A stretch of 10,374 nucleotides of DNA, taken from positions 1 through 10,374 of IMG/VR virus record IMGVR_UViG_2778261513_000006. The stretch is one strand, 5' to 3'. Below are positions 9,063 to 9,178 of this stretch, one piece after another. The position numbers were made by a program, and so were the translations under genes. Source of the DNA: a virus. Lineage: Duplodnaviria; Heunggongvirae; Uroviricota; Caudoviricetes. The notes below the pieces were generated by a model, which was given only the letters and a program-made list of their open reading frames with translations, ran no database searches and had not been told where the DNA came from. Numbering within the stretch: position 1 is the stretch's first letter; each line of letters begins with the position of its first letter.

Positions 9063-9073
9063 AATCAAACCTC

Positions 9074-9102
9074 TTGACGTATATAAAAAGTGATCCTAAT
9101 AT
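9074..9102 (+). promoter_or_regulatory. Candidate sigma-70 rightward lytic promoter (pR-like) of the immunity switch
   Basis: TTGACG (9074-9079), 17-nt spacer, TAATAT (9097-9102); near-consensus -35 and -10. About 75 nt upstream of the apl-like start and overlapping the cI ribosome-binding region on the opposite strand. Confidence 0.5.
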
Positions 9103-9178
9103 CCATTTATGGTTTGAAAAGCAAAACCAAACCACATAAAACAAGATAAAACGAAACCAAACTAAGAGATACTGCACT

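Follow-up and report, generated by a model that had tools for sequence, protein, structure and literature searches.

The 116-bp spacer between cI and the apl-like gene is quite probably the lysis-lysogeny switch of a Fels-2-like prophage, and it would work much as the switch of phage 186 does, with an array of candidate Apl operators lying between two predicted promoters that face each other. We regard the region as an ordinary further switch of the 186 type, with the Fels-2 immunity type, that confirms the 186 paradigm and does not change it. Throughout, the window is the whole stretch of 10,374 nucleotides that we analyzed, and positions are counted from its first letter. The 186 sites that we refer to were taken from the GenBank annotation of phage 186, a record that gives pR, pL, the CI sites, seven Apl sites between the promoters and five at attP, FL, FR, pE and the CII site. 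The comparison of immunity types drew on annotated phages for four types and on 119 IMG/VR loci and 14 genomes for further ones; the labels T1 to T5 (with T4b) refer to these types, and the switch described here falls in T1.

The map of elements that we give for the Fels-2-type switch (Table 1) is a prediction from sequence and not a rediscovery. The literature that we searched treats the Fels-2 regulatory region phylogenetically or with regard to antirepressors (PMC3448106, PMC11126057, PMC3121763), and it yielded no mapped operators or promoters and no binding, footprint or reporter results for the Fels-2 type. The switch itself is undissected there and appears in phylogenetic discussion only (PMC3448106).

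Table 1. Predicted elements of the switch and of the att arm, with their positions in the window.
Feature	Positions	Strand	Description and basis
att core, left boundary of the prophage	~5706..5745	.	Identical to the Fels-2 and SEN8 att
att-arm box array (candidate)	5795..5830	-	TAAAAA, TAAAAT, AAACAC, TAATAC; 10-bp spacing; TAAAA-N5-TAAAA pair
Two integrase arm-type repeats	5840..5862	+	CGCCAATTT; resemble the annotated 186 arm consensus YAYCGCCAYTY
cI, 186-type immunity repressor	8430..9062	-	210 aa; ATG at 9062-9060; HTH N-terminal domain and oligomerizing C-terminal domain
FL-like flanking CI site (candidate)	8792..8805	+	GTTCATTTTTGAGA; in the linker-coding part of cI, 288 bp left of O1
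cI Shine-Dalgarno	9070..9075	-	AAGAGG; direct reading; 2-nt overlap with the pR -35
pR, predicted early lytic promoter	9074..9102	+	TTGACG (9074-9079), 17 nt, TAATAT (9097-9102); predicted start ~9109-9111; promoter scan, 186 position
O1, candidate main CI operator	9079..9095	.	GTATAT-AAAAA-GTGATC; in the pR spacer, 6-N5-6 geometry
Dyad	9110..9134	.	TGGTTTG (9110-9116)-N11-CAAACCA (9128-9134); inner version GGTTTG-AAAAG-CAAAAC (9111-9127); shuffles, fold, relatives
Six-box array, candidate Apl operators	9117..9172	+	AAAAGC, CCAAAC, TAAAAC, TAAAAC, CCAAAC, AGATAC; exact 10-bp spacing; register analysis
pL, lysogenic promoter candidate	9169..9197	-	TTGAAA (9197-9192), 17 nt, CAGTAT (9174-9169); predicted start ~9162; 186 register
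apl-like gene	9179..9421	+	80 aa; Cox/Apl-type excisionase and regulator; BLASTP, PHROG
FR-like palindrome (candidate)	9420..9439	.	AAGTTC-N8-GAACTT, with GTTCAATTATGAGA at 9422-9435; just past the apl stop

The window begins as E. coli chromosomal DNA, with ypjCB and a broken ypjA, and continues into a 186-type prophage. In this stretch ypjA is split into ORFs 2158-5187 and 5216-5542, and the prophage insertion point is directly downstream of it. We take the att core, by recognition of its sequence alone, to be the 3' end of ssrA (tmRNA); an Rfam search on the att core found nothing to back this. After the att core the order is gapS1 (cargo), int, cI, the apl-like gene, cII and fil, with int and cI transcribed leftward and apl, cII and fil rightward, which is the order of the 186 type. 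The cargo gene at 5872-7413 (minus strand) encodes 513 aa and belongs to the GapS1 family by its RefSeq name. It lies between the att arm and int, overlaps the int stop by 7 nt and gave no match in a Pfam search. Other cargo in or near this slot includes a RES-domain protein in Cartapus and orfY in SopEPhi, and related phages and E. coli prophages also carry genes there that are annotated as HNH endonuclease or anti-phage dCTP deaminase.

The two proteins of the switch can be placed by homology. Pfam finds both 186 CI domains in the cI product (PF07022, 1e-33; PF16452, 1e-40), and it matches the 186 CI structures in the PDB (2FJR, 1e-28; 2FKD, 2e-11), so that it has the HTH domain and the wheel-forming C-terminal domain of the 186 CI family. 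It is 92% identical to Fels-2 CI and 30% identical to 186 CI. The first lytic gene encodes an Apl/Cox homolog, with 30% identity to 186 Apl by BLASTP (E=4e-13) and membership of PHROG 575, described as 'Cox-like excisionase and repressor', and PHROG 6912; a PDB search with this protein gave no match. As a whole, the cI-apl locus shares 94% identity with that of Salmonella phage Fels-2, and its identity to a Klebsiella prophage record reaches 98.7%. Together with the CI identity, a spacer of the same length with few substitutions points to the same immunity type as Fels-2, and exactly this type is present in 38 of 5426 complete E. coli genomes. The initial annotation had read the region as a 186-like immunity switch, and this reading is borne out by the CI matches, the Apl homolog, the presence of cII and fil, and the registers of the promoters, described below.

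The rightward element, TTGACG-17-TAATAT, is the predicted counterpart of 186 pR and stands at the position of the annotated 186 promoter. It was the sole match of the promoter scan in 8900-9500; a match to the consensus is not significant by itself, with 1 found against 1.2 expected by chance. All 100 unique related spacers keep TTGAC[GA], the 17-nt spacer and a TAnnnT -10. It had been described as a strong promoter whose -35 overlaps the cI ribosome-binding site. The hexamers, the spacer and the overlap were correctly located and the match to the consensus stands, while the word strong draws on that match only.

The leftward candidate, pL, is a poorer match to the consensus (just 8/12, with just 3/6 in the -10), and 9040-9260 holds just one other leftward match that reaches 8/12. 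Relative to apl it has exactly the register of pL in the 186 annotation, with its -10 ending 5 nt ahead of the apl ATG (9179) and its -35 starting 13 nt past the A of that ATG, here as in 186. The initial annotation had this weak leftward candidate in the right place and had called for a comparison with 186, by which both promoters map onto the annotated pR and pL. We rejected the second leftward match, TTTTCA-16-TAGGAT (9120 to 9093, minus strand), which is without a 186 counterpart and whose -35 is absent, by eye, in T2. This weak match overlaps the pR -10 and would give a cI leader of 24 nt.

The predicted starts of pR and pL are about 53 bp apart, which gives a convergent transcript overlap of about 52-54 bp; the 186 annotation implies about 62 bp between the two starts, and convergent promoters in P2-like phages are 40-60 bp apart (PMC7498355). 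From the pR -10 to the pL -10 the gap is 66 bp here against 76 bp in 186, a difference of one 10-bp box (six boxes against seven). The pL -35 falls inside apl, over codons 5-7, and the third positions of these codons are conserved at 0.98-1.00 against a mean of 0.73. Across 9191-9214, apl codons 5-12 hardly vary at their synonymous sites (conservation 0.89-1.00; 102 unique apl genes). The constraint extends beyond the proposed pL -35, and there may be an overlapping DNA or RNA element upstream of pL.

Between the two predicted promoters we find the array of six hexamers. The stretch 9103-9178 is significantly periodic at 5 and 10 bp (z=4.0 at lag 5, p=0.008 at lag 10). Over 14 sequence clusters, boxes ending in AAC are in phase in 30 of 42 cases, against 0-4 of 42 for each of the nine other phases. 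The box consensus over these clusters is T-A-A-A-A-C, which boxes 1, 2 and 6 match poorly, and the last box overlaps the pL -10. The pair TAAAA-N5-TAAAA occurs in the window at 9137 (plus strand) and 5816 (minus strand) only, with 0.15 expected. Extending the search to 138 related loci (1.27 Mb) gave 158 matches, every one of them in one of two zones: 88 lie at the switch just upstream of apl, and the other 70, all of them on the minus strand, lie toward int and att, 1.5-6.5 kb upstream of apl. The N5 between the two members of the pair varies among these loci. The minus-strand pair on the int/att side was present in 63 of the 90 relatives with enough upstream DNA.

This second zone corresponds in the window to the att arm, where four boxes follow the same order as at the switch, inverted, and adjoin the integrase arm repeats. 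Phage 186 carries five inverted Apl sites at the equivalent place according to its GenBank annotation. We consider the att-arm boxes to be candidate Apl excision sites.

The TAAAAC-like boxes are probably operators of Apl, the excisionase-regulator, and not of CI. We assign the array to the Apl-like protein because its arrangement is that of 186 and because the boxes stay constant together with Apl across at least five CI types (Apl 98-100% identical). In 186, Apl recognizes 6-bp direct repeats at 10-11 bp spacing, seven of which lie in the pR-pL gap and five at attP, and its binding is cooperative, with bending of the DNA (PMC7498355). Phased direct repeats both between the promoters and in the att arm are what the sequence has here too. 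The assignment rests on this architecture, and the box consensus differs from that of 186: the hexamers are TAAAAC-like here, whereas the 186 sites read as GGCAAA-like from the annotation (GGCAAA / TTTGCC-like). Judged by this hexamer, the predicted Apl specificity is not that of 186. We also counted against the Apl reading that the phased A-tracts may be selected for intrinsic curvature and not for protein contacts.

The repeats that first drew attention to the spacer were two copies of AAACCAAAC, 30 bp apart, proposed as a motif and as candidate operator or regulator sites. The copies are where they were said to be (9124-9132 and 9154-9162). Both lie inside the array, where they are boxes 2 and 5 plus their left neighbors, so they are no independent element. 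As a conserved unit the 9-mer does not hold up, since the right copy reads AAAACAAAC, AAACTAAAC or other variants in relatives. The proposal of regulator sites survives in the form of a predicted phased array, for Apl rather than for CI. The left copy of AAACCAAAC overlaps the dyad and may serve the dyad instead.

For CI we propose O1 as the candidate main operator. The right half of O1, AAAAAGTGAT, agrees with ATTCAC-AAAAA-GTGAAT, the 186 operator at pB, and the 186 CI sites cover the same part of pR. O1 differs between CI types, which retain a GATC ahead of the -10. Around O1 we did not find the set of three pR operators, two turns apart, that 186 has (PMC3675496); the half-sites that a 21-bp spacing would use (9058-9074 and 9100-9116) were unconvincing. 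We also rejected the palindrome CCAT-TT-ATGG (9103-9112) as an operator, as it is unconserved among T1 relatives.

Two further candidate CI sites flank the switch at a distance, one in cI and the other 341 bp right of O1, just past apl, in a palindrome that overlaps the expected pE -10. The motif GTTCA-N5-GAGA is found at these two places only in the window (8792 and 9422), against 0.08 expected. A dyad is present at the FL position in every immunity type, and in one type it is the perfect GTTCTC-ATTAT-GAGAAC. In 186, FL lies about 300 bp left of pR, and FR (ATTCACTTTATGTGAAT) is at the same place as the FR-like palindrome. On the minus strand this palindrome contains a conserved CATAAT, which would be the pE -10. 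Inside apl there is a terminator-like hairpin with a T-run (9342-9318, minus strand) that any transcript from the expected pE would have to cross to reach cI; it is weak, with a 5-bp stem, and may be due to chance.

Similar palindromes occur away from the switch in Fels-2 (locus L013, 358-425, upstream of the ogr-like gene), where the promoter region of the late activator has TCTCAATATTGAAT and TATCATTATTGCGAT. These are nearly identical to the palindromes of SEN8, which is heteroimmune, and they resemble the SEN8 pR operators. Both observations suggest that CI control of the late activator is shared across immunity types.

The dyad just downstream of the predicted pR start is real and specific to the immunity type. 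It had been noted as the inverted pair GGTTTG/CAAACC; the positions were right, the arms are 7 bp long rather than 6, and it is a separate element, apart from the repeats. An inverted repeat of 7 bp has p about 0.035 against shuffles. Our two candidates for its role are a second CI operator and a 5' hairpin of the pR transcript, and both roles could coexist.

The hairpin is a tentative reading, possible but with the odds against it. The early lytic transcript would carry at its 5' end a stem-loop, formed by the inverted pair, that could set mRNA stability, by stabilizing the message, or pause RNA polymerase over pL, with the A/C-rich repeats as an unstructured apl leader. If true, this would bring RNA structure into a switch whose explanation has so far involved only proteins and transcriptional interference. 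The predicted fold of the pR leader has z=-2.8, and the 7-bp dyad hairpin is its only stable structure, beginning about 1 nt after the predicted start and leaving the remaining leader unpaired. Two subfamilies of the same total length can be distinguished among the T1 relatives, with the 11-nt spacer seen here in one and GGTTTG-AAAAA-CAAACC in the other, and the stem persists in T1 with loops of 3 to 14 nt. The pair flanking the core of the dyad changes among TA, AT, GC and GT in T1 relatives with nearly identical CI N-terminal domains. In types T3, T4, T4b and T5 the arms at this position are unrelated, and they build a 12-bp helix around a conserved GTGAGAG loop; pairing holds in 94% of cells against 27-56% in slid controls, five pairs show double changes, and the G.U pairs fit the plus strand only. 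A helix with a (G/A)TGAGAG loop at pR +1 to +35 can be seen in related loci, for example L009 (3190-3225), L011, L122 and L093.

Several of these observations fit an operator as well. Double changes are also expected of a dyad operator. In T2, the element at this place is the palindrome GTTCA-AATAT-TGAAT, which folds weakly and is clearly a copy of the operator in the T2 spacer, related also to the FL-position sites and to the sites upstream of the late-activator (ogr-like) gene. The conserved 'loop' of T3 and T4 resembles the TGAGA half of FL/FR-type sites, the T1 version with the 5-nt spacer has exactly the 6-N5-6 geometry of the 186 operators, and CAAAAC returns as a half-site at the FL position. 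A.C mismatches outside the core in T1 would pair on the minus strand only. We gave up assigning the hairpin to a strand by G.U against A.C pairs, as T3 and T4 favor the plus strand and the T1 flanks favor the minus strand. A single consensus structure for T1 was impracticable, since the arm pairs with different hexamers 6 nt apart in the two subfamilies. The dyad hairpin matched no Rfam family, and a stem-loop leaves the att-arm copy of the boxes unexplained.

It is unlikely that the repeated AAAC motifs and the dyad are instead contacts of CI itself, weak sites that wrap onto the CI wheel. There is precedent for this in 186, where CI protects about 60 bp right of the pR operators through poorly defined weak sites (PMC3675496). 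At the FL position, those T1 relatives that have the 5-nt spacer carry GTTCAC-AAAAC-CAAAAC, whose right half is again CAAAAC, and the T2 operator copy at the dyad place counts for CI as well. The TAAAAC boxes, however, remain unchanged when CI and its clear operators change type. CI is 56-62% identical between immunity types and the left halves of the spacers are type-specific, while Apl is 98-100% identical across the four CI types compared. The same box pair is present in the att arm, where the repressor has no known role, and the 10-bp spacing of the boxes is not the two-turn spacing of the 186 CI operators. A mosaic junction can be placed at about 9137, with spacer and apl to the right of it nearly identical in at least five CI types and the sequence to the left type-specific. 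Operators of Apl are our preferred reading of the boxes.

That the motifs are chance low-complexity repeats in an A-rich spacer, without function, we consider very improbable. The unconserved 9-mer taken by itself would agree with chance: its exact repeat is marginal against local dinucleotide shuffles (p about 0.07), and allowing one mismatch gives 8 occurrences in the window where 4.6 are expected, which is no enrichment. Chance does not account for a box phase conserved over 14 clusters or for a pair confined to two zones in 1.27 Mb. Within this single sequence the statistics are modest, and the comparison with relatives gives much stronger evidence.

At the start of cII, the sequence ATGTTTG-N13-CAAACA (9454-9480) is conserved and matches the annotated 186 CII site at pE. 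The T1 dyad arms resemble its half-sites ATGTTTG and CAAACA, and it is just as improbable that they are a second CII site: we rejected CII binding on the distance between the arms, which ranges from 3 to 14 nt among T1 relatives, the other types keep the same CII site but not these arms, and 186 has a single CII-activated promoter (PMC7708051).

By homology with 186, the switch would operate as follows. A good rightward lytic promoter, pR, would face a weak leftward lysogenic promoter, pL. In the lysogen, CI would occupy the operator in the pR spacer, helped by the flanking sites about 300 bp away, and would shut pR; this would relieve the interference of pR with pL, and pL could then express cI and int. 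Once pR is active, the Apl-like protein, as the first product of this promoter, would bind the six boxes cooperatively, bend the DNA and damp both promoters. The same protein would bind the inverted boxes of the att arm and direct excision.

The likeness to 186 covers the gene order, the homologous CI, Apl, CII and Fil, and the register of the predicted promoters relative to the apl ATG. It extends to the phased boxes of the pR-pL gap, which come back inverted near the integrase arm sites of the att arm. Sites resembling operators flank the switch at a distance of about 300 bp, and a sequence resembling the CII site stands at the start of cII. The differences are that CI and Apl are only about 30% identical to those of 186, that there are six TAAAAC-like boxes here and seven sites in 186, that pR has a better -35 and a poorer -10, and that the dyad at pR +1 to +25 is without a 186 counterpart. 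Fels-2 (Felsduovirus) is far closer, with an identical Apl, the same CI type, a 117-bp spacer with few substitutions and an ssrA-like att; the prophage described here differs in its host, E. coli, and in the gapS1 cargo between att and int.

More distant systems share parts of the design. The Pe and Pc promoters of P2 also face each other 40-60 bp apart, and there too the first lytic gene, cox, is a dual excisionase and repressor that acts on phased repeats at the switch and at att (PMC7498355, PMC3448106). In contrast, the P2 C repressor is unrelated to CI, and P2 is without cII, pE, the flanking sites and SOS induction. The Xis proteins of lambda and P22 are likewise small and DNA-bending, and use direct repeats one helical turn apart in the att arm (PMC7498355). 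They differ in having no role in an immunity switch, and we detected no sequence relationship between them and the Apl-like protein.

What the analysis offers is a testable map of the switch of the Fels-2 group, with pR, pL, the six-box Apl array and its att-arm twin, O1 and the FL/FR-like sites. This group is common among the prophages of Enterobacteriaceae and carries defense and virulence cargo. An Apl-plus-operator module that is nearly unchanged in at least five CI types would amount to a natural modular exchange inside a region of 116 bp. From this we predict that heteroimmune prophages could cross-talk through Apl, both for excision and for the damping of the switch.
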